From contig JBAVQU010000015.1 of the NCBI GenBank assembly GCA_049694315.1, forward strand, positions 53,712 through 117,711: a stretch of 64,000 nt of DNA, written 5' to 3'. The stretch comes from Candidatus Zixiibacteriota bacterium (GTDB lineage Bacteria > Zixibacteria > MSB-5A5 > SM1-73). The translations under genes and the position numbers were made by a program. Below, in pieces: positions 5,578 to 45,830 of the stretch. Position 1 is the stretch's first letter. Each line of letters starts with the position of its first letter. The notes below the pieces were generated by a model. The model was not told where the DNA came from. It saw only the letters and a program-made list of their open reading frames with translations, and did no database searches.

Positions 5578-5669
5578 ATCCGGATGACGAATGACGAAAA
5601 CCTCACACCCTGTCTCCTCCTCTCTATGAAGTGCAGAGTGGGATGGGGGGAGAGGTAGAAGGAGGACGT

Positions 5670-6014
5670 GTGAAGGTAACAAATTTCAAGAACATGGAAG
5701 CCAGAGAGGTCAAAGAGCCGGGAGCCACTGGAGTCACCATTAGATGGCTGATTTCGGAAAAGGATGGTGCTCCCAATTTTGCCATGCGCTTATTTGAAGT
5801 ACAGCCGGGCGGGTGCACTCCTTATCACAAGCACAAATGGGAGCACGAGGCATTCATCCTCGAAGGCAAAGGAAATCTGACCCTCGAGGAGAAAACCACT
5901 CCTCTTAATAAAGGTGATGCAGTATTTGTTCCGGGCGAGGAAAACCATCAATTCAAGAATGCGTCGCAGGAGAACTTGGTCTTTCTGTGCCTGGTTCCCA
6001 ACAAAATGCTGTGA
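5670..6014 (+). CDS. Cupin-domain protein
   Basis: The two-His/one-Glu cupin pattern (PYHKHKWEHEAFILEG...VFVPGEENHQFKN). The track ORF N-terminus overlaps an intergenic repeat, so the start is more likely the GTG at 5670 after AGGAGG. Confidence 0.55.
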   Translation: MKVTNFKNMEAREVKEPGATGVTIRWLISEKDGAPNFAMRLFEVQPGGCTPYHKHKWEHEAFILEGKGNLTLEEKTTPLNKGDAVFVPGEENHQFKNASQENLVFLCLVPNKML

Positions 6015-6080
6015 TTTCGCCCGCCTTATTATCGGGATAATTTTCTGTTGAAGTCGGACAAGACGAATTCGCTCTTTTGA

Positions 6081-6140
6081 CCTCACCCTCTATTCCCCCT
6101 CTCCATCTTATGGAGAGGGGGACAAAAGGGGGAGAGGTAG
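6081..6140. repeat. Intergenic nested-palindrome repeat, copy A
   Basis: CCTCACCC...TTCCCCCTCTCCAT-ctt-ATGGAGAGGGGGA...GGGGGAGAGG. Confidence 0.7.
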
Positions 6141-6151
6141 AGAAAGTCGAA

Positions 6152-6703
6152 ATGCTGACAGACATCCAAAGAAAATATGGCACGCCGCGTGCACTGAACA
6201 TGTCTTTTTCCATGAACCAAGAGGAATTCGACATGCTCAAAGATAGCATGAAGGACGGTCGCAATTCCGACGTCACCCTGTTCATTCTCAAGGATAATAA
6301 GGTTATCCTAATCGCCAAGCCCTGGTATCCCCAAGGGCTTTATCGTGCCCCCTCAGGCGGGATCAAACCGGATGAAGACACAGAAGCCACCGCAAAAAGG
6401 GAAGCGTATGAAGAGACCGGAACCAGAATCGAACTGGTCAGATATATATTGAGAATTCAAGTCACTTTTACGTGTGGACAGGAGAGCATAAACTGGACCA
6501 GCCACGTGTTCACCGCACGCCATCTTTCCGGCGAGCTGCGACCTATCGACACGAGAGAGATAAAAGAAGCGACTTGGCTGAGCCTGGAGGAGCTTTCTTC
6601 TATGAAGTCAAAGCTTCTGGGGCAAAATTCTGGTGGGCTTGCCTATCGCGCCGCACTAACCGAGGCGGCGATAAATGAGATTCTATCCGCACAAAAGAAG
6701 TAG
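6152..6703 (+). CDS. NUDIX hydrolase
   Basis: Nudix box GGIKPDEDTEATAKREAYEETG. The track ORF N-terminus overlaps the repeat element, and an ATG at 6152 follows a GGAGAGG RBS. Confidence 0.7.
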   Translation: MLTDIQRKYGTPRALNMSFSMNQEEFDMLKDSMKDGRNSDVTLFILKDNKVILIAKPWYPQGLYRAPSGGIKPDEDTEATAKREAYEETGTRIELVRYILRIQVTFTCGQESINWTSHVFTARHLSGELRPIDTREIKEATWLSLEELSSMKSKLLGQNSGGLAYRAALTEAAINEILSAQKK

Positions 6704-6752
6704 GGGCGTATAGCCATATGCCCCTACTCATGACACCATAGTTTATCTGATT

Positions 6753-11083: not shown

Positions 11084-13099
11084 TTAGTCTGTCATCTCCA
11101 GTTTTATTCCGGCTAAGACTTTTCTGCCGGGGTTGGGGTAATCCAAATCCGAGATCGAGTTTCCAAACTGGGTGGGAGTGTTATCATCAAAAAGATTATT
11201 CACTTTCAAGAAGAGGGTTAGCCTTTTGATCTTCTGATTAAGATTGACGTCAAGGTTAGCGAAAGACCTGATCTTCTTGGTCACATACCTTATTTCCGGA
11301 TAGAAGGAATAATCCGGATAATAGTTCAGTTTTTCACTGCGGCAATTGAATGCCAGTTGAGCGGAAAACGATGAGAAGATTTTTAGATTCAAATTCACAT
11401 TGAGGCTATTTTCAGGCAGAAAACGTGCCTTTTTTTTCAACTCTTCAAATCTCGTCTCCCCGGAAAAGAAGTCGTCATAGACCAATTCCTTTTTAGTCTC
11501 CTCTCCCCTGTTATAGGAGTAGTTCACCGCAAAATCGAAACGCTTGGAGATTCTGTAGTCCAATTCCAATTCTGCTCCCGAGGAGCTGAACCGATCCAGA
11601 TTGAAAGGCTGCCATAATCCGTTTTGACCTAATGGCTGCCAGGAGATCATGTCTTTCACCTCTCGATAAAAGAAGAAGACCTGAGAAGAGATTTTCCTGC
11701 CGGCAAAAACCAAACCACTTTCAAGACTTCCCCCCTTTTCCGGTCTTAAGTCCTTATTCCCCCCTTCAGGCCAGTAAAGGTCGTTGAAGGTCGGGGCGCG
11801 ATAGGCTTTTCCGTAGTTCAGTTTTAGCGAAAAACCATCGCTCAGATGATAGATCCAGCCTAAGTTCGGAGAGAGCATTTTTTCGAAATTACTGGGCAGG
11901 TCATATCTGGAGCCAAGCTGAAAGGTGAATTTCCCTAAATTCAATGAGAAATTTCCCCAGAGTCCTAAAGTATTGGAATTCGGATTCCAGGAAAAACTCG
12001 AACTGGTCTGTGAGGTCACATAAGAGGATTTCCTTTGGGCTTCAAGGTGGTCTATCGAGAAATCCAGGCCGAAAGTGATTCGGCTTCTCTCCTTGAGCAC
12101 AGAGGAATACTGCATGAATCCGCCCAGGCTCTTGGTCAGGTAAGAGTACACTTCGTCTACTTCTCCGGAGAAATCGTATCTGGTCGAATAGTCCATCCTC
12201 CTTCGGTCAAAGAAAAGTCGGGTTAAGACCTCCCGGGATTTTTCCGCAGATTGGAGATGGAAAGCCAAATCTAGGGAATAGTTCTTATCCTTCTGATGGT
12301 CGAAGAGGGAAGAGACCGAAGAGCTGCCAAACTTCGGGATATTCAAAGGGTCAGGCGCAGGTCCGGGTAGACCTAAATCATCCTTCTGTGTCGACAAGTA
12401 GAGTTTCAGATCGGCGTTGGAAGTGAAGCGATAAAGAAGGGTCGAATGAGAGAATAAGGCTGAATAATCCGAGTTTTCTCTGTTGCCGCCAGTCTGCTTT
12501 CTTTCCAGACCCGAGTCAAACCTGAGATTCTTGATTCCTGAGGCAAAATCCAGAGTGGAGATTACAGTTTTCTCATCCCCATATAGAATGGAAGAGGAGA
12601 GGCTGTTTCTCAAGGGAAGAGTGGGAATCAGGTTGACCACCCCACCCAAGGCATTGGCTCCGTACAGAGAGGAAAGAGGACCACGGACGATCTCCACTTT
12701 TTCCAGATTACCCAACGAGAAGTCGCTTAAGTTGAAAATGCCGTTGGTGAGGTAGTTCAACCTTCTCCCGTCTAACAAGAACAACACCTGTGAAGAGGAG
12801 CAACCTCTCAGACTGAGAGTCTGCACCTGGCCTAAGGAGCCGGAAGAGTTCATTTCTGCGCAGGAGAAATTCCGTAGAGCCTCACCCAAAGAGAGAGAAT
12901 TGAAGCTCTTTAGCTTGGAGTAAGCCAGTAGAGTGGAATGCGTGGGAATATTCTTAAGATGCTCCGGATACCGGGTAGCAGTCACAAAGACGGGCTCACC
13001 CAAATAGATTCTTCCGGTGGTGGAGAGTTCAGATGTTTCCTCCGCCCGTGCTCCAATCGCGAGAAGCAAACCGAGACACAGAACAAAGACCTGTCTCAT
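11084..13099 (-). CDS. TonB-dependent outer-membrane receptor
   Basis: Signal peptide, plug-domain motifs (VEIVRGPLSSLYGANALGGVVNLI) and a long beta-barrel region, 671 aa. Confidence 0.8.
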   Translation of the reverse strand: MRQVFVLCLGLLLAIGARAEETSELSTTGRIYLGEPVFVTATRYPEHLKNIPTHSTLLAYSKLKSFNSLSLGEALRNFSCAEMNSSGSLGQVQTLSLRGCSSSQVLFLLDGRRLNYLTNGIFNLSDFSLGNLEKVEIVRGPLSSLYGANALGGVVNLIPTLPLRNSLSSSILYGDEKTVISTLDFASGIKNLRFDSGLERKQTGGNRENSDYSALFSHSTLLYRFTSNADLKLYLSTQKDDLGLPGPAPDPLNIPKFGSSSVSSLFDHQKDKNYSLDLAFHLQSAEKSREVLTRLFFDRRRMDYSTRYDFSGEVDEVYSYLTKSLGGFMQYSSVLKERSRITFGLDFSIDHLEAQRKSSYVTSQTSSSFSWNPNSNTLGLWGNFSLNLGKFTFQLGSRYDLPSNFEKMLSPNLGWIYHLSDGFSLKLNYGKAYRAPTFNDLYWPEGGNKDLRPEKGGSLESGLVFAGRKISSQVFFFYREVKDMISWQPLGQNGLWQPFNLDRFSSSGAELELDYRISKRFDFAVNYSYNRGEETKKELVYDDFFSGETRFEELKKKARFLPENSLNVNLNLKIFSSFSAQLAFNCRSEKLNYYPDYSFYPEIRYVTKKIRSFANLDVNLNQKIKRLTLFLKVNNLFDDNTPTQFGNSISDLDYPNPGRKVLAGIKLEMTD

Positions 13100-13873
13100 T
13101 TCTCACTCCTTAGTTTTAAGGGTTCAAAGACTCAGAAGTTCAAATGCCATAAGAACAATACTGCGCGAAAAAAACAAAACCCAGCTTCACGGCGAAGCTG
13201 GGTGAAATGCTATTTCCCAAAGACCTCTTCCCGCGAAGAGCAATGGAATATGAGTGTTAGGGCAATTCACGAATTGCCCCACCGTTAGACCTAATTCCTA
13301 AATCAAGCCTAACTTACACGAATTCGATTTGATCGGTCTCCTGACTTTATGGCTTCGAACCTACTCGCTTCCCTTCCCGTCCCCCGGTTGGTTATTGGTT
13401 CGTGGTTCATGGTTCGTGGTTAAAAGCTTTCACCACGAACTACGAACTCCGAGCCACCAACCATCCCGCCTTCGGCGGAATAGAACAGTGGTTATTGAAG
13501 CTTTCGTAGCCACTTACAGTAGCGGGGCTGTGGCGGATTTTCACCGCCTTCCCTTTACCCCATTTGGGGCATCAAATCGCTGTTGGTTTTGTCAGAGATC
13601 AAATTCAACTACATTATGTCTGATCCAATATTTGAAGTCAAGAGAAAAACCATTTTCTTCTCAGGTCGTGGCGTCTTTTTCTGTCATCCTGAGGGAATCC
13701 CGCCTTTTGCAGGACCAAAGGTGAAACGTAAACCGTCCCTTCTTGGTCAAGCTGAAGCTTGACACTCCAAAAACCTTTCCTTGTTTACCTCTGAGAGCTC
13801 CTTTTGTAGTTGCCCAATTCATTGGGCGATTTTCCACTCGATAAGCAGACGCTCCCGTCCGGGAATCGAACAA

Positions 13874-15224: not shown

Positions 15225-15394
15225 ATAACTCTCTCCAATTATCACACGTAGCCAAGCCTTCACGGCCTGGGATCGAGCCGAGGGATGAACCCTCGGCTAC
15301 GCGCTACATTATTATGATGTTAAACTCTCCCCCTCACCCTATCCCTCTCCCCCAAGGGGAGAGGGTAACAAATCCTCGCTTGTCTATATTATAC

Positions 15395-17923: not shown

Positions 17924-18049
17924 ATTCAGAGATTCATTCAGTTCTCCGATCCAAACTTCCGAGGATAAATTGGAGTGTTCACCTTCAGGTGAACCAAGTC
18001 AAGCTGAAGCTTGACACTCCGGTAAATTCCTCTTGTGTATCTTCTAATG

Positions 18050-18481: not shown

Positions 18482-18575
18482 TCCTCACTCCTTCATTATA
18501 TTCATTATGAAAGTACCCGATTGCAACTTCTTGCGGTGACGGAGAAGTCATCCATTGTCACCAAACACTTCATGT

Positions 18576-18704
18576 CATCGCCCCAGCAAACAACGTGCTC
18601 AAATCGACAATTCTTAGTCTTAACTCCTCTGAATAGCCCTCGGCGTTCTGGGTGCAGGAGAAATGAATCTGGCATTTTGGACAGGCGGTGACCCAAACCA
18701 CTGC
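18576..18704. repeat. Direct repeat copy 1 (pseudo 3' end of the hdrD-like gene)
   Basis: About 129 bp at roughly 94% identity to 19276-19404, which are the last ~43 codons of the CDS at 19270..20400. Confidence 0.7.
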
Positions 18705-18724
18705 AACCTTTGACTTAATTGACG

Positions 18725-18934
18725 TTATTTGTGTGCAGTTGTAGATTGGTAATGAGCCACAAGCTCTCGAACTTTAGAGATAAGTTTGTTGGGAACCTCA
18801 ATGAAGGTTTGTCCCTTCTCCTCGAAAGCCGCTTCGTCTTCTGCCACCGCCTCTTCTTCAGTTTGTTGCTCGTAATGAGCTATCACCCGTCGAACGCGCT
18901 CTTCATCCCAACCTGGTGGAAATTTGCTCTTCAT
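18725..18934 (-). CDS. BrnA-like antitoxin (type II TA)
   Basis: 69 aa, acidic, downstream of and overlapping the DUF497-like toxin gene by 4 nt. That arrangement is typical of BrnT/BrnA. Confidence 0.45.
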   Translation of the reverse strand: MKSKFPPGWDEERVRRVIAHYEQQTEEEAVAEDEAAFEEKGQTFIEVPNKLISKVRELVAHYQSTTAHK

Positions 18935-19218: not shown

Positions 19219-19269
19219 AATCTTCCGTGATCAAGACGTCCTCGAAAACAACCTCAGTCATGCCCTTAT

Positions 19270-30394: not shown

Positions 30395-30412
30395 GAGAGT
30401 ATTTTCCGTTCT

Positions 30413-32386: not shown

Positions 32387-32420
32387 GACAACCTCCTTTG
32401 GTTGTTATTTGTTTATTGTC

Positions 32421-32600: not shown

Positions 32601-32607
32601 ATAGACC

Positions 32608-33878: not shown

Positions 33879-33958
33879 AGTCTGTACAAGGGGAGAGGGA
33901 ATCTGTCGCTTCTCCCACTTTCTATTCTTCGTTCTTCCTTGTCCTTATCCGTCATTTC

Positions 33959-35239: not shown

Positions 35240-35329
35240 GTTCCACCCGCTCTCAAAAGTGCTTCTCTTTTCTTTGCTACTAAGATACCTATCGGGCTTA
35301 ATAAAGCAACAAAAATGTGAAAAAAACCA

Positions 35330-35555
35330 TGAAGAATGGCGGATAAAGGATGACGAATGAAGAGGCGGGATGAATTGCCGCCCCCTTGGAGGTTGTGTAA
35401 CGGTCGCACGGACGTGCCCACCTCGGCATTTATGCGACCTACCTGTTCGATAAATCGAACCGTCACAAATAAGCTCGATGAATCGAGCAACTACGGATTC
35501 CCCCTCTCCATTTTATGGAGAGGGGGATCAAGGGGGTGAAGTCTACGGTTTTATC
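35330..35555. repeat. Composite repeat copy (GATGACGAATGA motif plus nested palindrome)
   Basis: GGATGACGAATGAAGAGG ... TTCCCCCTCTCCAT-ttt-ATGGAGAGGGGGA...GGGGGTGAAG. Confidence 0.6.
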
Positions 35556-36267
35556 CAAACAACGCCTTCATCTTCAACTTCGCAATAGCCAGCGTGGGGT
35601 CCAACGTCTTGGGGCATACTTTTTGACAGTTGAAGATGGTATGACATCGGAACACGCCAAAATCGGTGGCCACAAAGGCCAGTCTTTCCTTTTTCTTTCC
35701 GTCCCTTGAGTCGTCGATGAATCTCAATGCTTTCATCAGCGCGGCAGGCCCAAGATACTTGGGATCGGTGGCCTCGACCGGACAGGAACCGTAGCAGGCG
35801 GCGCAGAGAATGCAATCCACCCAGGGATCGATCTTTTTTCTTTCCTTCTCACTTTGGATGTATTCCTTCTTCGGAGGCTCCTGTTTAGGAATCAAGTACG
35901 GCATCACCCTCTTGTACTGGTCAAAGAATGGCTCCAAATCGACCACCAGATCTTTGATTATGGGCAGGTGGGCCAAGGGACGCAATACGATTTTGCCTCC
36001 GTACTTGTCGATCTGGGTTCGACAGGCCAAATTGTAAAGCCCGTTGATATGCACGGCGCAGGAGCCACACACTGCCGCCCGGCACATGGATCTGAAGGAT
36101 AAGGTGGGGTCGACGTTCTCAAAGATGTAAATCAATCCTTCCAGAACGGTCATTCCCTTGGGGCTATCAAAGGTGTAAGTCTGAAAATGAGGCTCTGCAT
36201 CCTTATCCGGATCGTATCGAAGTATTCTGAATTCAGTCATATCTATGTTCCCTTTCTTTAGATTCAT
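35551..36267 (-). CDS. sdhB: Succinate dehydrogenase/fumarate reductase iron-sulfur subunit
   Basis: 2Fe-2S motif (SMCRAAVCGSCAVHING) and 4Fe-4S/3Fe-4S motifs (CILCAACYGSCP, CHTIFNCQKVCP). True start may be the internal MTEF. Confidence 0.85.
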   Translation of the reverse strand: MNLKKGNIDMTEFRILRYDPDKDAEPHFQTYTFDSPKGMTVLEGLIYIFENVDPTLSFRSMCRAAVCGSCAVHINGLYNLACRTQIDKYGGKIVLRPLAHLPIIKDLVVDLEPFFDQYKRVMPYLIPKQEPPKKEYIQSEKERKKIDPWVDCILCAACYGSCPVEATDPKYLGPAALMKALRFIDDSRDGKKKERLAFVATDFGVFRCHTIFNCQKVCPKTLDPTLAIAKLKMKALFG

Positions 36268-36291
36268 CTCTCAGTGTCCGTCTCCGTCCGA

Positions 36292-37989
36292 CTAGTACTT
36301 CCTCTCCTCCGGTTGATACTTGGTGATGGAGGCCCCTTTGTAGGAGAGCTTTGGCCCCTCGGGAGAGTATGTAGCAACCGTATGCTTTAAGAAGTTGGCG
36401 TCGTCTCTGGTCGGAAAATCGTTGCGGAAGTGAGAGCCGCGGCTCTCCCTTCGAGCCAAAGCTCCAGCCACCACCACCTCGGCCACGTCTAAGTTACCCT
36501 TGATCTCCAAAAACCAAAGCTTATCAATGTTGAACTTCTTGCCGGGGGCTATGGGTCGAGACTTTTTGAACCTCTCCTTCAAGGTCTTGATCTGGGTCAA
36601 TCCTTCAGTTAACCGTTTTTCGTCGCGGAATATTCCGGCCTTGTCCGGCATGAGTTTTCTGAGCTCATTATTGATCTTGTGGGGATTCTCGTTGCCACTG
36701 GACTTGGCCATCTGATTGATGCCGTCGTCTTCTTTTCTTAGCGCTCGCTCCAACGCATTGGTTCTGGGCTGCTTGGGTTTGTCTTTGACGTATTCTGCGG
36801 CTTTGGCTCCGGCTCTTTTTCCGAAAACCAAAGTGTCTAAGAGCGAATTGCCACCCAGTCTGTTTGCCCCGTGCACGCTGACGCAGGCGCATTCTCCTGC
36901 TGCATAGAAGCCTTTAAGCATGGTCGCTCCGTCGATACCGGTGTCGATTCCTCCCATGCAGTAATGGGTGCCGGGTTGAATGGGGATAGGCTTTTCGATG
37001 GGATCTAAGCCAATGAAATCCAAGGTGATTTCTCTGATGCCGGGCAGCCGCTCCATGATCTTAGCTCTTCCCAGATGCGTTAAATCCAGATAAACGTACG
37101 ATTCCTCAAATCCACGCCCTTCAAGAATCTCCGTGGTTATGGCGCGGGCAACGATATCGCGTGGACCAAGCTCCATGGCTTTGGGAGCATACTTGGTCAT
37201 GAATCGCTCCCCATCTTTGTTGATCAGAGTCCCTCCCTCACCTCTACATCCTTCAGTCATCAGGATGTTGCTGGGATAAAGTGAAGTCGGATGGAACTGG
37301 ATGAATTCCATGTCTTTCAGAGGAACCCCGGCCCAATAGGGCATGGCTACTCCAAAGGCAGTGGAGGTGATACCGTTGGTGGAGTTGCCATAGATTCGGG
37401 CGGAGCCGCCCGTGGCAAACACCACCGCATTCGCCCCTATTGCCTGCAGCTCTCCGGAATGCATGTCCAAAGCGACCACTCCGCAGCAGGACTCACCATC
37501 CTTTGCCAGCCCGATCACCGTCCATTCATTGTAGACCTTCACGTTGTGTTTGACCGTCTGCTCATACAGGGTCTGCAGCATGTAATGGCCGGTTCTGTCG
37601 GAACCGTAACAGGTGCGAGGGTAGCCCGCTCCGCCGAACGGTCGCTGGGCGATCTTACCTTCCGGGGTGCGGCTAAAAGGACATCCCCAGTGTTCTATCT
37701 CGAAGATTATCTCGGGAGCCTGTTCGGTCATGAAAATGGAAGTCTCCTGATCGGCCAAAAAGTCGCTCCCTTTGATGGTATCAAATCCGTGTTTTTCGGG
37801 GGTGTCATCTGCCGCCTGGGGATTGTTGGCTAAGGCGGCGTTGACGCCACCCTGGGCCTGACCAGAGTGCGATCTGACGGGGTAAAGCCTGGAGACTATG
37901 GCGACGTCTGCCTTTTTCTCCGCGGCGGCGATGGCCGCCCTCAAACCCGCCAGGCCGCCTCCTATTATCAGTACATCATGAAATATCAT
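36292..37989 (-). CDS. sdhA: Succinate dehydrogenase/fumarate reductase flavoprotein subunit
   Basis: VLIIGGGLAGLRAAIAA...SHSGQAQGG...His-FAD region, 565 aa. Confidence 0.9.
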   Translation of the reverse strand: MIFHDVLIIGGGLAGLRAAIAAAEKKADVAIVSRLYPVRSHSGQAQGGVNAALANNPQAADDTPEKHGFDTIKGSDFLADQETSIFMTEQAPEIIFEIEHWGCPFSRTPEGKIAQRPFGGAGYPRTCYGSDRTGHYMLQTLYEQTVKHNVKVYNEWTVIGLAKDGESCCGVVALDMHSGELQAIGANAVVFATGGSARIYGNSTNGITSTAFGVAMPYWAGVPLKDMEFIQFHPTSLYPSNILMTEGCRGEGGTLINKDGERFMTKYAPKAMELGPRDIVARAITTEILEGRGFEESYVYLDLTHLGRAKIMERLPGIREITLDFIGLDPIEKPIPIQPGTHYCMGGIDTGIDGATMLKGFYAAGECACVSVHGANRLGGNSLLDTLVFGKRAGAKAAEYVKDKPKQPRTNALERALRKEDDGINQMAKSSGNENPHKINNELRKLMPDKAGIFRDEKRLTEGLTQIKTLKERFKKSRPIAPGKKFNIDKLWFLEIKGNLDVAEVVVAGALARRESRGSHFRNDFPTRDDANFLKHTVATYSPEGPKLSYKGASITKYQPEERKY

Positions 37990-38197
37990 GTTTTCTTCTC
38001 CTCTTTAGTAAGGCTGGAAGCTCGGTTGTGGGTTTCGATGCTCGCATCGAGTGTTGGGTTCCGAAGCTCGTGAATCGAGGTGAGAAAACGGACTTTCCAA
38101 CTTCGAATGACCGGCTTCGAGCATCGATGCGAGTTTCGACGCCGTTAAACGAGCTTCTAAAACCGATTTCCCTGTTGGGTTCATGTGGCGTCAAATC

Positions 38198-38599
38198 CTA
38201 ATGATGTGAAAACGCCCGCCCCAGGAAAACCACTAGAGTGATGGCCATTAGGATGACGAAAATGACCATAGCTATCCAGAAGATAGCCTTATGTGGCTTA
38301 GTCAAGAAAAAGAAGTCCGCGATGGTGATGCGCAGGCCATTCAAGAGATGAAAAGCTACCACCGCCGCCAGAGCAATCTCCAGAACGTGAGTAAGCGGGG
38401 TCTGAAGATGGGAAAGCCAGGCGTTGAAGGTCTGCGCTCCTCCGAGGGAGGAGCTTAAGACGAAGAGGTGCATAAAAAGATAAATCACCAAGATCACGCC
38501 GGTGATCCGATGCAAAAGCCAGGACCAGGTTCCCACATTCGGGTTTAGGCCGACCTCCTCTTGATACTTTCTGAAAAAACCTGACTTGGACTGATACAT
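38198..38599 (-). CDS. sdhD: Succinate dehydrogenase membrane anchor subunit (cytochrome b small subunit)
   Basis: 3 TM helices with conserved His. Start set at MYQSK immediately after the sdhC stop. Confidence 0.5.
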   Translation of the reverse strand: MYQSKSGFFRKYQEEVGLNPNVGTWSWLLHRITGVILVIYLFMHLFVLSSSLGGAQTFNAWLSHLQTPLTHVLEIALAAVVAFHLLNGLRITIADFFFLTKPHKAIFWIAMVIFVILMAITLVVFLGRAFSHH

Positions 38600-38601
38600 C
38601 T

Positions 38602-38958
38602 TTAGGCTCCTTTGGTAAACGTGATTATCAGATAGTATCCCCAGGCAGAGATGGCAATTCCCAGAATCCAGAGCAGGGCCTTGACCGCGCTCTGCATTCC
38701 CGGTCGGGGACGGTAGTCGTGGATAACTTGCCATGCTCCGTTGAAAGCATGGAACAGCCCCGCTGGCACGAAAATCAAGTAGAAGATCACCCATCCGGTG
38801 CTATCCATTCTTCGGGTCACCACACTAAAATCAATTCTCCACTCTTTAGTGAAGTGAAGCACCTGGAAGTGTAGGATTAGAAAAAAGGCCAAAAAGATGC
38901 CCGTGATCCTCTGCAGAAGCCAGCCGTATGCACTGCTTTTGCTGGTTTTCTCGTTCAT
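38602..38958 (-). CDS. sdhC: Succinate dehydrogenase cytochrome b subunit
   Basis: 118 aa, 3 TM helices, WLLQRITGIFLAFFLILH pattern. Confidence 0.6.
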   Translation of the reverse strand: MNEKTSKSSAYGWLLQRITGIFLAFFLILHFQVLHFTKEWRIDFSVVTRRMDSTGWVIFYLIFVPAGLFHAFNGAWQVIHDYRPRPGMQSAVKALLWILGIAISAWGYYLIITFTKGA

Positions 38959-39228
38959 GCCGGTCGCTCCTTGAAAGAGGTTTTAGGTTCTCTGGTTTGA
39001 GCTCTATAGCCGGAAAAGCAAGAAAGCTTTTGCGTTGGAGTCAGTTTTCGTTTGTGTCACAGAGCCGAAATTTAAGTACTTGTTCCACCGAAGTCAACAA
39101 CAAAATGCAAGATTCTGCGACGCTGACTGCTGAGCGGGAAACCGCCATCCCTCCTAAGACCGTGGCGATTCCAGCCTACAATGACTCATTCTGACTTTTA
39201 ATCATAAAGATCCAGCGAATTCTCTCCA

Positions 39229-40020
39229 ATGGAGATAAAGAACCACTCAGTTTTGCCGACAAAAGTAGTGCAGACTTGGACTGAACTGAACCTTTTGACC
39301 CAAATTCGCTTGCCCTTGAAAGATATTTTGCAAATAAAAGAGATTTCCTATGGGGTGTTTCCCGAAATCTGTGGCTTAAACCCAAGATTCAACCCTAACA
39401 GCAAGAAAGTCAAGGTGGTCTTGGACGTTCGGCTTCCCAAAGCCGCGGGCAATGGAAACCTCCCTTTGATTTTCAAGCAACTTACCAGGCTTTTGCCTTC
39501 TTTAGAAAAACATCAGTGCGGAGAGCACCTGCTGGATGAATTGAAATCGGGGAAGAGCACTCCACACCTACACGATTCTGGAAGCGCAACGGACATAGCC
39601 CATCTCATGGAACACGTGATGATCGATCTCCAGTCCAGACTTACCGGAATGAATTCCTGCAGCGGGATCACCTGTGCATACCGAAGTCCCCAGTCTCGTT
39701 TCGACATGTTCGTGGAATGCAGAGACCAGAAAGTCGGGCTGTTTACGGCCTTCTTTGCTGCCGAGCTGTTGAGCCGGTTGGTGAAAAGCAAGAGCCTCAG
39801 CCGAAGATATTCTGCTCTAATAGACTTGGCCAAATATCTCTATGCCAAGGAATCGTGCCCGCCCCGCAACGGCAGGCAGCAGATGGGAATGGAGCTTGAT
39901 CCTCTGGCGACTCAGATAAGTTCGACCTTCAACTGGAAGAAAAGTTTTGTTCTCCCGCTTCTGAGAACACTGAAAGACTTCGGTTTTCTCAATGGCAGGT
40001 TACCTGTGACCAGTCGATAA
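39229..40020 (+). CDS. Hypothetical protein
   Basis: 263-aa ORF. No family confidently recognised. Confidence 0.4.
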   Translation: MEIKNHSVLPTKVVQTWTELNLLTQIRLPLKDILQIKEISYGVFPEICGLNPRFNPNSKKVKVVLDVRLPKAAGNGNLPLIFKQLTRLLPSLEKHQCGEHLLDELKSGKSTPHLHDSGSATDIAHLMEHVMIDLQSRLTGMNSCSGITCAYRSPQSRFDMFVECRDQKVGLFTAFFAAELLSRLVKSKSLSRRYSALIDLAKYLYAKESCPPRNGRQQMGMELDPLATQISSTFNWKKSFVLPLLRTLKDFGFLNGRLPVTSR

Positions 40021-40044
40021 CCTTTCGAGTGAGGTGACGATAGC

Positions 40045-40293
40045 ATGACCGACAAATCCTGCTTCGATGACCCCAAGAATCTAAAGGCGAAGATCCGGAA
40101 ACTGATCTCTTTCGAAGAGGACACAGATTCCCGGAAGCCACGACAGAAACGGTCTCAAAGCAATCCGGAGTCCCCGGCATCGGTCTCAAAATATGCCAAA
40201 GTTCTAAGTTGTACTTTCATCGGCCAAACCGAGGAAACCCGATGGACCAGGGATACCCGCGAACAGAAGGAAGGGCTTTTGCAGGCCACTTGA
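40045..40293 (+). CDS. Small hypothetical protein
   Basis: 82-aa ORF, basic and low-complexity. Weak coding evidence. Confidence 0.25.
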   Translation: MTDKSCFDDPKNLKAKIRKLISFEEDTDSRKPRQKRSQSNPESPASVSKYAKVLSCTFIGQTEETRWTRDTREQKEGLLQAT

Positions 40294-40382
40294 GGCAGCA
40301 ATTCACCAGAAAAGCCATGTCGTAAAACGCATCCATTCAGTAAGGGAGCATGAGAAACAAAAATGAAAGGAGGTGAAAAAAC

Positions 40383-40595
40383 ATGACCAAATTCAACTTC
40401 CATGATTTCAAGAACATCGAGAGACCGACCATGTCTCCGTTCTATTTGCAGGCCAAGATCTGTGATTTGGTCTCTTGCTCTGTTTGCACCAAGGTGAAGG
40501 TGGATTCGATGAATCCGGAGACCGGTGAGTACCGGGTGGTTCTTCACGGCACCCTGGATTGGGATACCCCGGAAACCTGGTGGACCAATCACTAA
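40383..40595 (+). CDS. Small paralogous protein 1 (70 aa): conserved N-terminal part, divergent C-terminal 11 residues
   Basis: AAAGGAGGTG RBS 5 nt upstream. Shares IERPTxSP...LQ...DL....C..KVxSxNPxTGEYRxVLxGTLD with the next ORF. Confidence 0.45.
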   Translation: MTKFNFHDFKNIERPTMSPFYLQAKICDLVSCSVCTKVKVDSMNPETGEYRVVLHGTLDWDTPETWWTNH

Positions 40596-40698
40596 GATCA
40601 CTTGATCGTGTGTACGTTTGGAAGACATCCCCTTACTGAAAGATGGCACGTAATCTCAACCAGAACCAAAAACATGCAATAGGAGGAGGTGAAAAGAA

Positions 40699-40911
40699 GT
40701 GGTGAAATTCAGATGCCAAAACCTCCCGGTCATAGAGAGGACTCCAACTTCACCGGCGGCATTGCAGTACAGATTGAGTGACCTTCTATACAACTCAACC
40801 ACCTGCCGGGCAAAGGTGGAGTCGGTGAATCCGACCACGGGAGAGTACCGGATAGTGCTACAGGGCACACTCGATTGCTGGGATGAGACCAATACAACCA
40901 CCAATCAGTAA
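40699..40911 (+). CDS. Small paralogous protein 2 (70 aa)
   Basis: AGGAGGAGGTG RBS. Paralogue of 40383..40595 with a different C-terminal tail (CWDETNTTTNQ versus WDTPETWWTNH). Confidence 0.45.
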   Translation: MVKFRCQNLPVIERTPTSPAALQYRLSDLLYNSTTCRAKVESVNPTTGEYRIVLQGTLDCWDETNTTTNQ

Positions 40912-40942
40912 CACAGAAGGTCAAAGAGGATTAACCTTTTGG

Positions 40943-40970
40943 AAAGAGCCCCGCTTGTGGCGGGGCTCTT
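40943..40970 (+). terminator. Strong hairpin after the small-ORF pair
   Basis: AAAGAGCCCCGC-ttgtg-GCGGGGCTCTTT, a 12-bp stem. Confidence 0.4.
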
Positions 40971-41467
40971 TCAACTAATGTATCGGAGGGGCAAAGAGAT
41001 GAGAAGACGAAAAGTAGGTTCACCCGTCAAGAAAACTAGTTCTCACCGAACGGTCTCGCACACGACCGGAAACCAGGAGGCTTTTTGGACGGATCCGACG
41101 GCACCCATAACCAAGGTGTCAAAGCAGCGAAAGTTAAAACCGAACAAAAACCGGATGAAGAAAAACAGTTGTTGGTGGTTTGGTTAAAATCCAATTAGTC
41201 TCTTCCGAAAAGATTCGACTGAGGTGCCATATTTCAGAGGATAACTACGCCCGAAATGAACGTGAAATGGATTTCACGGTTGCCCAATCGTGCTGGACGT
41301 TTTTCCAATGCCTCCTCTGGGGCTGAGATCGTTTGTCGGCCTCCCATCTCTCAGATATAATACTTCTTACAAAATTCTTGCTCTTCGGTTTGATCTTTCT
41401 ATATTTCCTTCACAAGTAGAATATCTGTCCGACGCGAAAATCTCTTCGCGCAAGAAAGGAGTCCCCT

Positions 41468-42175
41468 ATGAGCGAAAGAATCAAGCTGCTTATCTTTCCT
41501 GCAATAATCTTCTTAGCTGGAGTACTATTATTCCTCTGGCTGAATGATCTGTCTCTGAGGGCAGACGAAACAAAACCTATGAATGGAGAAAACATGAAGC
41601 TACCACAGCCAAAATTCAAAAGCCAAACCAGCGTGGAAGAGGCACTGGTCAATCGTCGCTCGGTCAGAGAATACAAACAAGATTCTCTTTCTCTTGAGGA
41701 GGTCTCTCGGCTTCTCTGGGCGGCGCAGGGTGTGACGGCGAAATGGGGAGGCAGAACCGCTCCTTCGGCTGGGGCTCTATATCCCCTGGAAGTGTACTTG
41801 TTGGCTGGAAAAGTGAGGGGTTTGAAACCGGGATTATATCATTATGATCCGGAAAAGCACACCATTACTAAGAAGAAAGAAGGCGATCTCCGGGAAGAGC
41901 TGATCCAAGCCTCGTTGGGACAGGGACAGATCCTCAGCGCTCCGGCCACTCTCGTCATCACCGCGGTCTACGAAAGGACCACGAAAAAGTATGGTCAGCG
42001 CGGCGTGCGGTACGTCCACATGGAAGTTGGCTTAGCAGCCGAGAATGTATACCTGCAGGCCGAAAGTCTGGGTTTAGGTACGGTGTTCCTCGGGGCCTTT
42101 GAGGATGAGGAGGTAAAGAAGGCTCTGGGAATTGAGGAGGAGCCTTTGGCAATCATGCCGGTGGGCAAGAATTGA
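41468..42175 (+). CDS. SagB-type dehydrogenase domain protein (nitroreductase superfamily, FMN) with an N-terminal TM helix
   Basis: NRRSVREY...LSLEEVSRLLWAAQGVT...GRTAPSAGALYPLEVYLL...GLKPGLYHYDPEKH matches the SagB-type dehydrogenase domain signature. Confidence 0.6.
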   Translation: MSERIKLLIFPAIIFLAGVLLFLWLNDLSLRADETKPMNGENMKLPQPKFKSQTSVEEALVNRRSVREYKQDSLSLEEVSRLLWAAQGVTAKWGGRTAPSAGALYPLEVYLLAGKVRGLKPGLYHYDPEKHTITKKKEGDLREELIQASLGQGQILSAPATLVITAVYERTTKKYGQRGVRYVHMEVGLAAENVYLQAESLGLGTVFLGAFEDEEVKKALGIEEEPLAIMPVGKN

Positions 42176-42199
42176 ATGGAACAAAGAAAAGGGAAGAAG

Positions 42200-42410
42200 G
42201 AAAATGCAACAAACGATGACGAATGACTGATGATGGATCAAGGATGAAGACAGGGGAGAACCGAGAGTGGAAAATGGGAGAAGCGAAAGACCCCCTCTCC
42301 CCTCCGGGGAGAGGGTCAGGGTGAGGGGGGTTAACACAAGGAACATGGAAGGAGGAAAAAGGAGAACGTGAAATATCATGACGAATGATGAATGACGAAT
42401 CAAGGCAAAA
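42200..42410. repeat. Composite repeat copy (short ATGACGAATGA repeats on both sides of a CCCCTCTCCCC-tcc-GGGGAGAGGG palindrome)
   Basis: CGATGACGAATGACTGATGATGG ... CCCCCTCTCCCCTCCGGGGAGAGGGTCAGGGTGAGGGGGG ... CATGACGAATGATGAATGACGAAT. Confidence 0.6.
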
Positions 42411-42600
42411 ATCTTTTCCTTGCGGAAAGAGAAAGGGATAGATACTTACCAGGCAAAAGGCACGGGGAACAGTCAACACAGTCCGAGGAAGTGACAACTG
42501 GATGTCATTGCGAGAACCGCTCAGACGACCGCTCGCCCGGGCGAAGTGACGAAGCAATCGTTTTGCAGCCCTCAACTTTAACCTGCCTGACGAGCACTCA

Positions 42601-42660
42601 ACCTCTCCCCATCTGTCCCCCTCTCCATTTCATGGAGAGGGGGATATCGGGGGTGAGGTT
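42601..42660. repeat. Intergenic nested-palindrome repeat, copy D
   Basis: CCTCTCCCC...TGTCCCCCTCTCCAT-ttc-ATGGAGAGGGGGA...GGGGGTGAGG. Confidence 0.7.
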
Positions 42661-42671
42661 TCTACAGAGAG

Positions 42672-43418
42672 GTGGAGATGAATTTAGCAGATAAGATCGC
42701 ATTGGTAACCGGCAGCTCCCGGGGAATCGGTAGAGCCATCGCCCTGAAGTTGGCGAAAGACGGATGTGATCTGGCCGTCAACTACAAATCGAACCACTCG
42801 GCGGCAGATCAGGTCGTGGATCAGATAAGAAAGATGGGAAGAAAAGCCATTTCTTTCCAATGTGACGTTTCCAACTTTGCGGATGTGGAAGAAATGATAG
42901 GCAAAGTAAGATCGGAATTCGGCAGGATCGATATTCTGGTCAACAACGTCGGGCCGTTCCTTTACAAGACACTTTTCGACACCGCGATTGCGGAGTGGCA
43001 CGAAATTCTGAACTCGGATTTGAATTCAGTCTTCTACTGCTGCAAATCGGTGGTGCCGACAATGCGGGAGCAGAAATCCGGAGTGATCATAAACATCGGC
43101 GGGCCCAATGCGGAGAGAACACAGGGCTTCCTTCGCACGTGCGCCTATGCCACGGCTAAGACTGGGGTGGTGGTTCTCTCCAAGAGCTTGGCAAAGGAGG
43201 AAGCGAGCAATGGTATACGGGTGAGCGTAGTGAACCCGGGATTCATCGAGACGGAGAACTATACTGAAGAGATGAAAGAAAGCTGGTCAAAACAGGTGCC
43301 GCTCAAAAGACTGGGGAAGCCGGAGGAGATAGCCGACGCAGTTGCATTTTTGTGCTCGAATGAAGCCGGCTACGTCACCGGAGTTGTGCTTAACGTGCAC
43401 GGAGGTTTGTGGTGTTAG
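42672..43418 (+). CDS. SDR-family oxidoreductase, 3-oxoacyl-ACP reductase-like
   Basis: ALVTGSSRGIGRAIA...NNVG...YxxxK pattern (CAYATAKTG). Confidence 0.8.
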   Translation: MEMNLADKIALVTGSSRGIGRAIALKLAKDGCDLAVNYKSNHSAADQVVDQIRKMGRKAISFQCDVSNFADVEEMIGKVRSEFGRIDILVNNVGPFLYKTLFDTAIAEWHEILNSDLNSVFYCCKSVVPTMREQKSGVIINIGGPNAERTQGFLRTCAYATAKTGVVVLSKSLAKEEASNGIRVSVVNPGFIETENYTEEMKESWSKQVPLKRLGKPEEIADAVAFLCSNEAGYVTGVVLNVHGGLWC

Positions 43419-43420
43419 TC

Positions 43421-43480
43421 TGTAGGGACAACTCATGTGGAACATCCCGCCGAGGCGGGGAGTTGTCCCTACATTGCCGG
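43421..43480. terminator. Long palindrome between convergent genes
   Basis: TGTAGGGACAACTC...GAGTTGTCCCTACA (14-bp arms) with an inner CCCGCCGAGGCGGGG hairpin. Confidence 0.4.
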
Positions 43481-43515
43481 GCGGGGGTTGAACTCCCGGC
43501 CGGGCGAGGAAGGTA

Positions 43516-44727
43516 TCAGTGTGAGAGGCAGCAGCGATGGTGTCTGTGGTGCCGGTGGACACGGAAGGAATGAACGCGGCGAAACCCGTAGTGTCCGCTT
43601 GACCGGAATCCGAAATGATCTCGACGTCGGTGGAAATGTTGTCCCGGCCGAGACGGTCTGACGCGACCAAGCCAGGTGTGCTGGGATGACCTTGCTCCTT
43701 CTTGACCCGAGATGTCACCGTGACCGGGGAGTTGGGAATACCGCTTCGGCTTGGCCTTAAGCTCAACACAACCACTACCCAGCGCACCTACATCGGTGCC
43801 TCCTTGACCGGCACCCAGACAAGGCGATGACGGATTGAGGCGGTAGTCATCGTTTTCCGGGTCACAGAAAATCGGGTCTGTTGACATATTACTTTCCCCG
43901 GCAGAACATCCATTGCAGTTGGTTACATTCCCCCACACGTCGTTATGAGAAAACTCGGTCAGTGTGCCGCTCCGATTCTCAATGCCAACACCACCATCGG
44001 CCATTATGTTATTTTCCACCAATGCTTGCCCGTATAGCTCGACATTGAAACGGGGGTGTGAGCTGAAGGTATTGTAAACGATGCGGTCATGGCCGTGGCT
44101 ATCGATCCCGACCCAGTTTCGCAATATGAGATTCCTCGATACGCTAATTCTGCACGAATTGTCAAAACATAGTATACCGATTGCATGGGTGTTGTCTCTT
44201 ATCTGGTTGTTGGTGATGTTTGCGTAGGAGTTTTCAAGCCACACTACCGCGCCTTCAGAGCCAACATCTCCCCCGTTCCGAGTGAGAATATTGTTTCGAA
44301 TGGTGCACGAGGAATTCTGACATCGCACCGCCCCGTTTGATAGAGTGAAGATCTTGGCACCCTGAATGGTAAAGCCTTGAAGTATCGACGTGGTATCCTC
44401 GCCAGAGTCAAAAGTCACCAGCGGAACTCCGTCAGTAACCTCACTAATAATGGTGTTCCCAGGCTCATCCTCACTCTCAAGTAATATAGCTTTGCCATAG
44501 AAGCTGATGTGTTCACAGTAAGTCCCCGGTGCAACTAGGACGGTGTCGCCGCTTGCCGATGCATTAATTCCTTCTTGGATGGTGGATTGACCGCCCGGAA
44601 CGTGGATTATCCTTGCTTGCGTCTGTTGGAGACGAAAGAAAACGAGAACAACACAAAAAGCTGTGGCTAAGAAACGCACGAAACCTCCCGGGTTTGGAAC
44701 TCCACCACAGAAGACCAAGCCGTACAA
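43516..44727 (-). CDS. Right-handed parallel beta-helix repeat protein (secreted), with a His-rich C-terminal tail
   Basis: N-terminal hydrophobic segment. Repeated NNI/NNQ beta-helix-type repeats (ITNNQIRDN, ENNIMADGGVGIEN). C-terminal HRHHRHHR. Confidence 0.55.
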   Translation of the reverse strand: MYGLVFCGGVPNPGGFVRFLATAFCVVLVFFRLQQTQARIIHVPGGQSTIQEGINASASGDTVLVAPGTYCEHISFYGKAILLESEDEPGNTIISEVTDGVPLVTFDSGEDTTSILQGFTIQGAKIFTLSNGAVRCQNSSCTIRNNILTRNGGDVGSEGAVVWLENSYANITNNQIRDNTHAIGILCFDNSCRISVSRNLILRNWVGIDSHGHDRIVYNTFSSHPRFNVELYGQALVENNIMADGGVGIENRSGTLTEFSHNDVWGNVTNCNGCSAGESNMSTDPIFCDPENDDYRLNPSSPCLGAGQGGTDVGALGSGCVELKAKPKRYSQLPGHGDISGQEGARSSQHTWLGRVRPSRPGQHFHRRRDHFGFRSSGHYGFRRVHSFRVHRHHRHHRCCLSH

Positions 44728-45111
44728 AATAGCTTTGATGACGGATCTACTCTTTTACCTTCAATATATCCATTTTCCCTGGTTAGACAAGAGGATTTTA
44801 TCCCAAAAGGCCGGAAATACTGAAGGAATCGGCTCTATCCCTGGTTCCTGAGCCGATGCCCCGAATCTATCAGCGTCAGTAGGCCGCGCCACCGATGGAG
44901 ATAAAGACGACTATCGAGAGAGACTCATCCCGTCTAGGCAAGAGGATTCACCGCGGATGAGGCAGATCAAAGTAGCCGATACTAGCTTAACCCGATTGAT
45001 CTGCTGTGCAACACACTTCCCCCTCGCCTCAATCCTCTTTCCCGAGGGGAGAAGAAGAAAAAATCCCTTTCCTCTTGTGGGAGAGGGTCAAGTGTGAAGG
45101 GGATGTTTCGA

Positions 45112-45732
45112 TTAATGCAGGATGCCCAGCCAAGCAGTCATAAGAAAGAGTATCCTTCCGATAAGAAGGGACATACGAGACATCACCGTGTAACCGAAGG
45201 ATGCGCCAAAGGAGATCATCAAAAACCAGGTGCCGATTTTCGCTCCTGCACCGAGAGCTCCCTTGTGCTCCTTGGAGAAGAAAAAGTAAATCAGCCCGGT
45301 GATGACCCCCACGATCAGAAGGATGTTGTTCAACGATTCAAGCCACTTCCCCGTCCACAAGGGGAGCAGGTTGGCGTGAATCTGCAGGATCAGATCCCCT
45401 GAGCCATAGCCTACGATGGTAATTCCGGCGTAGATTCCGATTATCAGAGCCATGGACCAGCGGGAGAGCCAGCTGATTCTTGTGAAAAAGCGGCTGAAAA
45501 GCAGAATCCCGAAGATGAAGGGAACCAACAGAATCAGCTTTCCCTGCTGGGTCAGCGGTCTCCACAGATTAGGCAAAAAGACGTTGTAGATTTCCAAAGT
45601 CACGCCGTAACCGGCAGATATGCCTACGAACAGGTGCTCGGCGAATTTATAGAAGGGATTGTCTTTGTATAGAAATGAAAATGCGCACAGGGTCAACAAA
45701 GCGGCCACCCAGATTCCGAGTAGATCCCACAT
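45112..45732 (-). CDS. Cassette A, gene 4: polytopic membrane protein (paralogue family 4)
   Basis: About 6 TM helices. Conserved FSFLYKDNPFYKFAEHLFVGISAGY and LIYFFFSKEHKGA.GGAA.IG.W.LMI.FGA.FGYTVMSRMSLLIGR, shared with 48446..49072 and 52016..52675. Confidence 0.55.
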   Translation of the reverse strand: MWDLLGIWVAALLTLCAFSFLYKDNPFYKFAEHLFVGISAGYGVTLEIYNVFLPNLWRPLTQQGKLILLVPFIFGILLFSRFFTRISWLSRWSMALIIGIYAGITIVGYGSGDLILQIHANLLPLWTGKWLESLNNILLIVGVITGLIYFFFSKEHKGALGAGAKIGTWFLMISFGASFGYTVMSRMSLLIGRILFLMTAWLGILH

Positions 45733-45772
45733 TGAATTTGATCTCTTCTGTTGCCTACGTTTACCTCTCCCC

Positions 45773-45830
45773 TTTAGTCCCCCTCTCCTTGTCAAGGAGA
45801 GGGGGATACAGGGAATGAGGTTTAAACCTT
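45773..45830. repeat. Intergenic nested-palindrome repeat, copy E
   Basis: CCTCTCCCC...GTCCCCCTCTCCTT-gtca-AGGAGAGGGGGA...GGGAATGAGG. Confidence 0.7.

Follow-up and report, generated by a model that had tools for sequence, protein, structure and literature searches.

A 64,000-nt stretch of the genome of a Candidatus Zixiibacteriota bacterium (contig JBAVQU010000015.1; hereafter the window) carries, in the spacers between its genes, a family of short GC-rich hairpin repeats, which a first-pass annotation had described as an intergenic palindromic family of at least 10 copies. The family is real, dispersed, and far above chance: ATGGAGAGGGGGA, with at most one mismatch, is matched nine times versus 0.23 expected, CCCCTCTCC is matched 10 times versus 1.34 expected, and three composite patterns give four, two, and two matches versus 0.00 expected from shuffled sequences. 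Eleven copies were counted, six of a four-arm and five of a three-arm form, and profile hidden Markov models (HMMs) built from foreign-genome copies alone recover all 11 and nothing else convincing there. These counts and coordinates refer to the window only; loci from other genomes carry L-numbers, and taxon names are those of the assembly labels. On the gene map each of the 11 copies is intergenic, as had been proposed.

The four-arm form (type A) reads ACCTC(T/A)CCCC, a 5-6-nt spacer, TCCCCCTCTCCAT, a 3-nt loop, ATGGAGAGGGGGA, a 4-5-nt spacer, and GGGGG(T/A)GAGGT. It is thus a hairpin of CCCCCTCTCC and GGAGAGGGGG with one mirror-image arm on each side, and the order C-arm, G-arm, G-arm is found on either DNA strand. 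Five of the six copies have a fully paired 13-bp inner stem, four of them with TCCCCCTCTCCAT / ATGGAGAGGGGGA and that at 45763 with ...CCTT / AAGG...; the outer arms of the copies at 6080 and 42601 contain an A.A or T.T mismatch. Of the nested palindrome originally described, the inner stem therefore stands, whereas the outer arms form only an imperfect palindrome. The best copy, ACCTCTCCCC-ATCTG-TCCCCCTCTCCAT-TTC-ATGGAGAGGGGGA-TATC-GGGGGTGAGGT, occupies 42601-42659 on the plus strand and ends 18 nt upstream of the start of an SDR gene (42678); it allows 10 and 9 legal base triplets (defined below) on its two strands, and its predicted RNA fold has an energy of -46.2 kcal/mol (z -6.65). The spacer that separates the cupin gene from the NUDIX gene contains, on the minus strand, CCTCACCC / CCCCCTCTCC / GGAGAGGGGG / GGGGGAGAGG (6080-6138; HMM E 1.9e-15), with a 13-bp stem, 11 and 8 legal triplets on its two strands, and an RNA folding energy of -42.6 kcal/mol. 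The copy between the DUF3108-like and RmuC genes (30413-30474; E 2.6e-9) has one mutated base in the inner stem (GGAGACGGGG), and the plus-strand copy at 45763-45821 (E ~1e-12) abuts the TAA stop codon (45822-45824) of the upstream gene of cassette A, one of three paralogous gene cassettes described below. At 35498-35542, on the plus strand and about 8 nt from the sdhB stop, a type-A hairpin has three arms and no left outer arm (E 8.8e-12). A repeat finder added a degenerate minus-strand copy (ACCTCACACCC...GGGGGGAGAGGT) at 5600-5656, directly 3′ of a heptamer run and matched by the foreign HMM with E ~6e-8. All five clear copies of the first-pass annotation are real; the third of them, however, is this left-armless copy at 35498-35542 instead of 35508-35555, and the sixth, at 5600-5656, had been overlooked.

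The three-arm form (type B) consists of CCCTCTCCCC, a 3-nt loop, GGGGAGAGGG, a 3-nt spacer, and GGGTGAGGGG, in accordance with the three-arm scheme of the family as a whole, in which a hairpin CCCTCTCC-loop-GGAGAGGG is followed by a G-rich arm, GGGTGAGG, that mirrors the G arm of the hairpin. Two copies are intact, CCCTCTCCCC-TCC-GGGGAGAGGG-TCA-GGGTGAGGGG at 42290-42331 on the plus strand and a second at 15325-15366 on the minus strand (HMM E 1.6e-8), each with 10 legal triplets. A third, on the minus strand, has its left two thirds (both C arms, outer and inner, and the beginning of the G arm) at 32566-32597 and its last arm at 33894-33899, beyond an insertion sequence (IS). The remaining two form a degenerate inverted pair at 45018-45100, C-C-G followed by C-G-G, of which approximately 45018-45057 lies on the minus and 45064-45100 on the plus strand, with weak HMM matches at 45033-45057 (minus) and 45065-45088 (plus). 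The four sites that had been listed as variants are thus real three-arm copies with the boundaries refined as given here, the last being a pair rather than a single copy.

Arrangements of this kind have been described under several names. BoxC is an intergenic repeat of Escherichia coli reported in the 1990s (PMC4666352), the name PIT is credited to Maher et al. (2000) by Holder et al. (2015; PMC4666352), and the BoxC/PIT/TMECO family is described in the latter paper and by Kaplan et al. (2016; PMC5100583). The TMECO pattern is 5′-CCCTCNCCC N3-6 GGGNGAGGG N3 GGGNGAGGG; E. coli MG1655 has 23 copies, all intergenic and without strand bias, and five sites are inverted pairs (PMC4666352). The isolated E. 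coli strand forms a purine-motif intrastrand triplex in vitro, as observed by circular dichroism (CD) and nuclear magnetic resonance, and the elements have been tied to local genome variability (PMC4666352). The same authors called the function of such repeats unclear and gave no accepted mechanism for the spread of these elements (PMC4666352).

The published pattern matches the window exactly at two sites, 15331-15365 (minus) and 42293-42327 (plus), versus 0.00 expected, and these are the two intact three-arm copies. Furthermore, 5419 of 5426 complete E. coli genomes have unannotated chromosomal sites, at a median of 17 places per genome, that align over 41 nt with the copy at 42286-42332 at 90-93% identity. 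The inverted layout of the E. coli TMECO pairs recurs in the decayed pair at 45018-45100, and similar pairs occur in other genomes; copies in the window stand in both orientations; and the three-arm pattern matched more than 120 IMG/VR stretches. Because the published pattern, the identity with E. coli chromosomal sites, and the inverted-pair layout all agree, type B is assigned to the known family: judged by their sequence, the three-arm copies are BoxC/PIT/TMECO intrastrand-triplex motifs. Taking the two forms together, arm sequence and arrangement show the GC-rich elements to belong to this class. The arm sequences are identical, the order C-arm, loop, G-arm, 3-nt spacer, and mirror G-arm is the same, and the window copies resemble the E. 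coli elements in being intergenic throughout, in occurring in both orientations and as an inverted pair, and in their ties to local genome change. There are also differences, in that six of the 11 window copies are four-armed, with a longer hairpin (10-13 bp, G5 tracts), 4-6-nt spacers, and two-sided mirror arms, and in that the host is an uncultured Zixibacteria-related bacterium, neither a proteobacterium nor a cyanobacterium. The Rfam family Whalefall-1 RNA (RF01762) has the same arm logic, its consensus being a UCUCUCC/GGAGAGA hairpin followed by AGGGUGAGG, but its model has a 24-nt insert between hairpin and tail. Membership in that family was rejected, as the scores were 14.8 and 14.4 bits versus a gathering threshold of 37. 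Permissive Rfam scans of the repeat-rich spacer otherwise gave only chance matches to miRNA hairpins.

The distribution of the four-arm form was examined with a pattern of 36 specified bases, CCTCNCCC-N3-8-CCCCCTCTCC-N7-GGAGAGGGGG-N3-8-GGGNGAGG, using one genome per species. It was found in at least 119 stretches from metagenome-assembled genomes whose labels span more than 10 groups, including, among the matches listed, Chloroflexi and Anaerolineae, Dehalococcoidales, Ignavibacteria, Zixibacteria, Gemmatimonadota, Bacteroidota, Fibrobacteres, Planctomycetota, Acidobacteria, Holophagales, Patescibacteria, Moduliflexus, and delta- and other proteobacteria; their GC fraction at these loci ranges from 0.33 to 0.71. 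Therefore the four-arm form is not species-specific, and the first-pass suggestion of a species-specific element is refuted for both forms, the three-arm form being present in E. coli. The four-arm form is instead a widespread variant, essentially absent from plasmids, and neither a description of it nor its sequence was found in the literature that could be searched. The fourth arm is not a general property of the family, as CCTCNCC occurs upstream of nine of 169 IMG/VR three-arm matches versus 12 of 169 in a control window. In the compared genomes, other copies of the same hairpin have one mirror arm in 22 of 25 cases, both in one, and none in two. These one-armed hairpins often form split pairs (C-C-G, linker, C-G-G), and the four-arm element resembles a pair of this kind reduced to a single hairpin.

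Relatives also carry the element. By gene-level DNA similarity, the genomes nearest to the window are the Zixibacteria genome L204 (SM1_73; 70-75%) and the Ignavibacteria-labelled L153 (78%), and Zixibacteria-labelled genomes are among those with the four-arm pattern. In L204, a decayed remnant (ACCTCACCTTCCCCCCC...) lies at 3794-3850, 3′ of the orthologous phosphoribosyltransferase gene and at the site corresponding to window positions 5578-5660; comparison of the two suggests that this remnant and the window copy at 5600 descend from an old insertion that is decaying in both lineages. In the Anaerolineae F20_72 genome (L175, L183, L211, L229, L132, L227, L145, and L149), four-arm elements are part of larger mosaic clusters whose linkers, such as TGAATCAGGGAGAAAACCAAACATG, are conserved, an organization resembling that of bacterial interspersed mosaic elements (BIMEs), with linkers unlike those of the window.

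The anatomy of the element was examined in 120 four-arm copies (L122-L240) with 75 distinct central sequences among the matches listed. In the central heptamers, positions 1 and 7 form a Watson-Crick pair in all 75 sequences, with all four pair types used, and positions 2 and 6 do so in 65 of 75, whereas a G.T (G.U) wobble accounts for only one of 150 pairs. This pattern of substitution indicates that the central hairpin is kept by compensatory change and, since wobble pairs are avoided, that both DNA strands matter rather than one transcript. Beyond the hairpin, Watson-Crick complementarity is not maintained: the spacers are complementary in only 16 of the 120 copies, and the outer arms are mismatched (A.A or T.T) in 63. 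Each outer G arm is instead an exact mirror of the hairpin G arm. Intact four-arm copies thus allow 8-11 consecutive legal purine-motif triplets (G.G:C, A.A:T, and T.A:T) on both strands, and intact three-arm copies allow 10. A protein-binding site present twice cannot account for the mirror arrangement, and a plain long hairpin would need no mirror arms; we infer that the outer arms fit the requirement for an antiparallel third strand, so that a triplex is predicted. At the level of secondary structure, long interrupted hairpins are predicted, with energies of -19 to -24 kcal/mol for DNA; for RNA the values are -42 to -46 kcal/mol in full four-arm copies (z approximately -5.8 to -6.9) and -25.7 kcal/mol (z -4.4) in the three-armed copy (35490-35548). 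A further observation concerns the variable base of the outer arms, for which the combination of T on the left and A on the right occurs in none of the 120 copies versus approximately 13 expected under independence; as the two are never combined, GGGGGTGAGG is always present on at least one strand.

With respect to neighbouring genes, copies of the element lie between co-directional genes in 47 cases, convergent genes in 10, and divergent genes in nine. At a distance of 0-10 nt, 35 of 216 element sides have the stop codon of an open reading frame (ORF) with 100 codons or more, versus 44 of 2380 at random control positions, and orientation relative to transcription shows no significant bias (18 versus 9). 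The elements also mislead gene prediction, as had been suspected: the mechanical ORFs of the cupin (5631), NUDIX (6077), RmuC (30442), and cassette-A gene 4 (45795) proteins start within elements and thereby gain false N-terminal extensions, and the minus-strand ORF at 42153-42575, which has no Pfam match, is a false ORF derived from repeats. Elements of 45-62 nt thus seed false ORFs, N-terminal extensions, and pseudo-peptides (of PLSP..GRG.GVRG types) across many labelled groups, and they merit masking as is done for repetitive extragenic palindromes (REPs). The cassettes mentioned above are three paralogous multi-gene units with DUF6754 proteins at 45112-55521, 63-72% identical in DNA sequence and approximately 3.1-3.6 kb apart; repeat elements have been acquired in the spacers of cassette A only. 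The cassette-A spacer that holds the copy at 45763-45821 is 87 nt long, versus 26 and 15 nt for the matching spacers of cassettes B and C, which have no element.

Among ORFs bracketed by two elements in the fetched loci, a single family recurs, namely DUF559 proteins of 110-120 residues with a Vsr-like PD-(D/E)XK fold (Pfam E 7.5e-39). All nine DUF559 genes in these loci (L153:4418-4780, L134:211-615, L202, L240, L150, L215, L074, L103, and L104) have an element within 143 nt on both sides; six are in genomes labelled Ignavibacteria (two), Chloroflexota, Gemmatimonadetes, Labilithrix (Myxococcota), and Gemmatales (Planctomycetota), and three are in IMG/VR contigs. The last residues of these ORFs, ..SPP or ..PSP, are translated from the C arm. 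Because these first loci had been selected for elements, an unbiased set of 80 metagenome loci (L280-L359) was chosen by DUF559 protein similarity alone, using three query sequences. In this set, an element lies within 200 nt upstream of the DUF559 gene in 30 of 76 cases, downstream in 36 of 75, and on at least one side in 45 of 80, versus a background farther from the genes of 0.12 elements per kb, or approximately 0.02 expected per 200 nt. The single DUF559 gene of E. coli MG1655, ycjD (L279:11408-11761), has a degenerate hairpin across its stop codon, and TMECO no. 9 of Holder et al. lies about 165 nt downstream of it, beside a duplicated fragment of the ycjD 3′ end. DUF559 genes are therefore physically associated with the elements. 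No link between DUF559 and BoxC was found in the literature that could be searched; the Vsr/DUF559 group does include a group I intron homing endonuclease (PMC3424549).

Several other accounts of these repeats must be weighed against this background. That they are a REP/BIME element of one species, mobilised by a REP-associated tyrosine transposase (RAYT, a Y1 HUH transposase), is the account closest to the first-pass label, and the resemblance is considerable: both are short, imperfect intergenic palindromes scattered in both orientations, the expected mosaics with other short motifs and linkers are indeed present at 42176-42671 and 32387-32597, HUH-type mobilisation would be in keeping with the lack of target duplications, and each family has repeats on both sides of a small nuclease gene (RAYT for REPs, DUF559 for the present elements). 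However, REP sequences are lineage-specific, whereas this sequence occurs in E. coli and more than 10 labelled groups; the flank profile of the 120 four-arm copies contains no conserved GTAG/CTAC foot beside the hairpin, only an A...T extension and AT-rich flanks; homopurine mirror-repeat outer arms are foreign to REP hairpins; no Y1 transposase was present among approximately 41 window ORFs scanned against Pfam; and the candidate partner, in what is a putative role, has a PD-(D/E)XK (Vsr-like) rather than a Y1 HUH fold. A REP assignment in the strict sense is thus not supported, and we regard mobilisation by a RAYT as very improbable. A miniature inverted-repeat transposable element (MITE), derived by deletion from a DDE transposon and marked by terminal inverted repeats and target-site duplications, would account for the inverted ends ACCTC...GAGGT and for the inclusion of the element in larger conserved repeat units in some genomes, such as the Anaerolineae F20_72 loci. 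Among the 120 copies, however, identical flanking 2-6-mers are not in excess at any boundary offset, and because target duplications are absent the element is not a MITE in the usual sense; at 55-62 nt it is also below typical MITE length, and the ends of the only DDE transposase element in the window (IS481 family) are unrelated. This origin is extremely improbable.

The two remaining accounts give the structure itself a function. An intercistronic or 3′-end RNA hairpin that stabilises the upstream mRNA or terminates transcription, selected in each genome, would be consistent with the stability of the predicted RNA hairpins, with the strong enrichment 0-10 nt 3′ of stop codons, and with the prevalence of co-directional neighbours. 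Termination, which the first-pass annotation had considered, finds no support: the copies are not terminator-like because a T-run (U-run in the RNA) is missing, no terminator-like site in 29000-46500 coincides with an element (a separate small minus-strand hairpin with a T-run, at 35473-35488, merely adjoins the copy at 35498-35542), and published tests of the E. coli elements found neither promoter nor terminator activity (PMC4666352). Moreover, copies lie within operons, 10-35 nt before the next start codon, and in both orientations to transcription; the avoidance of G.U pairs points to a constraint on both DNA strands, and neither mirror outer arms nor sameness of sequence across phyla is necessary for an RNA hairpin. 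Although a transcript-stabilising effect of the modelled -42 to -46 kcal/mol hairpin is possible, selection for such a function as the explanation of the family appears unlikely. The hairpin/G-quadruplex/duplex switch (HPGQ) model of Kaplan et al., in which neighbouring genes would be regulated, draws on CD evidence of a cation-dependent switch in E. coli oligonucleotides (PMC5100583), and the three-arm copies do have four G-tracts of at least three residues with 3-nt loops (GGGG-AGA-GGG-TCA-GGG-TGA-GGGGGG at 42303-42331). In the four-arm copies, on the other hand, each strand has just two G5 tracts in addition to GG dinucleotides, so that the majority form in the window fails the canonical G-quadruplex rule, and no functional class stands out among neighbouring genes in the window or in E. 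coli. We consider a regulatory switch of this kind improbable.

The explanation that we favour, and hold to be reasonably probable as a whole, is that the GC-rich repeats are homopurine-homopyrimidine elements of the BoxC/PIT/TMECO class, selfish or neutral, spread through a link with DUF559 genes, and that the heptamer repeats beside them are a separate class. According to this explanation, the elements would be non-coding DNA that lodges in gene spacers, preferably just 3′ of stop codons. When single-stranded, each DNA strand would fold as a hairpin plus a purine-motif triplex built of the triplets defined above, and transcribed copies would form a very stable hairpin without a U-run, which could act as a barrier to 3′-exonucleases rather than as a terminator. 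The elements would also be hot spots for local change, and their spread would most likely be linked to the small DUF559 (Vsr-like) endonuclease genes, with four-arm copies arising as solo remnants after recombination between two hairpins that flanked such a gene. The most specific form of this link is that BoxC-type elements are non-autonomous partners or recognition sites of free-standing DUF559 genes in a cross-phylum, REP/RAYT-like selfish system that includes ycjD, and that the four-arm copies of the window are solo remnants of a hairpin-gene-hairpin cassette; this proposal is tentative, and we think it rather doubtful as it stands.

Several observations weigh against the favoured explanation. 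The triplex has been shown for E. coli oligonucleotides in vitro only, and dimethyl sulphate footprinting in vivo saw none (PMC4666352). The four-arm form does not fit the published pattern, and its probable membership in the family rests on architecture and common arm sequence; the four-arm copy at 42600-42661 has no E. coli match at E<=1. No filled/empty-site polymorphism was found in the two short Logan contigs recovered (run SRR28002918), both of which are identical to the window. As for DUF559, the orientation of the flanking elements is not fixed (12 versus 10 upstream, 17 versus 7 downstream), 38% of complete E. coli genomes have the repeats yet no ycjD, and the window contains neither a DUF559 gene nor a remnant of one.

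Three features bear on the function and spread of BoxC elements: the four-arm sequence is constant in genomes of 33% to 71% GC, the outer arms obey triplex rather than Watson-Crick rules, and DUF559 genes are bracketed by elements both in E. coli and in metagenome-assembled genomes labelled Ignavibacteria, Chloroflexota, Gemmatimonadetes, Gemmatales, and Labilithrix. The third of these offers a concrete hypothesis, for which ycjD makes E. coli a suitable test case. Should the link with DUF559 not hold, these repeats would be just another member of an established repeat class, found in a new lineage.

The heptamers were originally joined with the GC-rich palindromes into one composite element. 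They are in fact two distinct repeat classes that occupy common spacers. GATGACGAATGA occurs exactly four times in the window and 15 times with up to two mismatches, versus 6.6 expected, and Tandem Repeats Finder reports period-7 arrays at 5584, 32493, 42215, and 42378. The heptamers reported previously are real, although the run claimed at 33930-33960 is weak and amounts to a single TCCGTCAT. An (ATGACGA)2 run on the plus strand at 5583-5598 starts 6 nt 3′ of the phosphoribosyltransferase stop and abuts the copy at 5600, and motif search together with reading of the sequence places a single GATGACGAATGA heptamer dimer at 35349-35360 (plus). Elsewhere the heptamers belong to a purine-rich module of approximately 75 nt, GGAAGAAGGAAAA...GATGACGAATGA...CAAGG, with plus-strand copies at 42174-42251 (E 1.3e-14) and 42335-42413 (E 5.2e-16) and two tandem minus-strand copies at 32410-32479 and 32478-32550, upstream of the SPFH gene (E ~1e-13 and 4e-13).

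In other genomes the module has one weak match only, at the Zixibacteria locus L187, and heptamer dimers are at background frequency in the other loci except L187 and L137. All heptamer sites in the window are within 150 nt of a GC-rich element, an association that is only suggestive because just four independent spacers are involved; heptamers abut the ACCTC end directly in two genomes, at 5583-5600 of the window and in L137. On these comparisons we read the heptamer arrays and 75-nt modules as a second repeat class that is essentially confined to the lineage, probably using the same permissive spacers and thereby giving a BIME-like mosaic. Heptamer repeats are abundant in bacteria (PMC4692102). 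The window holds other short arrays of this period, at 20505-20534, 46675-46701, 32530-32545, and 51820-51834, with the units TTTTGCA, GTCCGCA, TTCCATC, and AAGGAAA, and period 7 is over-represented among its tandem repeats. The STRR-type repeats of cyanobacteria are tandem heptanucleotide units in intergenic DNA. The ATGACGA arrays resemble them in being tandem intergenic heptamers with several unit types per genome, but they are very short (2-5 units), have another unit sequence, are embedded in the 75-nt purine-rich module, and occur in another phylum.

The IS that splits the type B copy at 32566-32597 is an IS481-family element at 32598-33888 on the minus strand, with a transposase ORF at 32650-33861 (Pfam rve, HTH_32, and LZ_Tnp_IS481). 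Alignment of its two ends reveals terminal inverted repeats of approximately 50 bp and a 5-bp AGGGG target duplication, the second copy of which (33889-33893) lies beyond the IS with the rest of the split G arm (AGAGGG; together 33889-33899). The insertion interrupts both the repeat copy and the nfeD-SPFH spacer, and its removal in silico restores CCCCCTCACCCC-GA-CCCTCTCCCC-GGA-GGGGAGAGGG. As a single case, an anecdote, it agrees with the published link between triplex-motif copies and local instability. A plus-strand ORF of 463 residues at 32614-34005 is the antisense shadow of the transposase.

Other features of the window include a second widespread intergenic hairpin repeat, GTCATTGCGAG...GACGAAGCAATC, which occurs once in the repeat-rich spacer (42504-42560) and also in L140 (6807-6844); it matched 37 IMG/VR stretches (L242-L278), some with three or four copies each. 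A 136-nt direct repeat, 93% identical between 18569-18704 and 19269-19404, brackets a 107-residue ORF at 18719-19042 that has no Pfam match. Two spacers (13746-13790 and 17998-18042) have in common a 45-nt motif that starts with the palindrome GTCAAGCTGAAGCTTGAC and may be a candidate regulator-binding site. Finally, a cobalamin riboswitch at 13314-13591 on the minus strand (85 bits), the only match at gathering level in an Rfam scan of the window, lies upstream of a TonB-dependent receptor gene (11084-13099) and contains an internal hairpin at 13386-13466 whose 39-nt arms are made of GGTTCGT / ACGAACY heptamer repeats.

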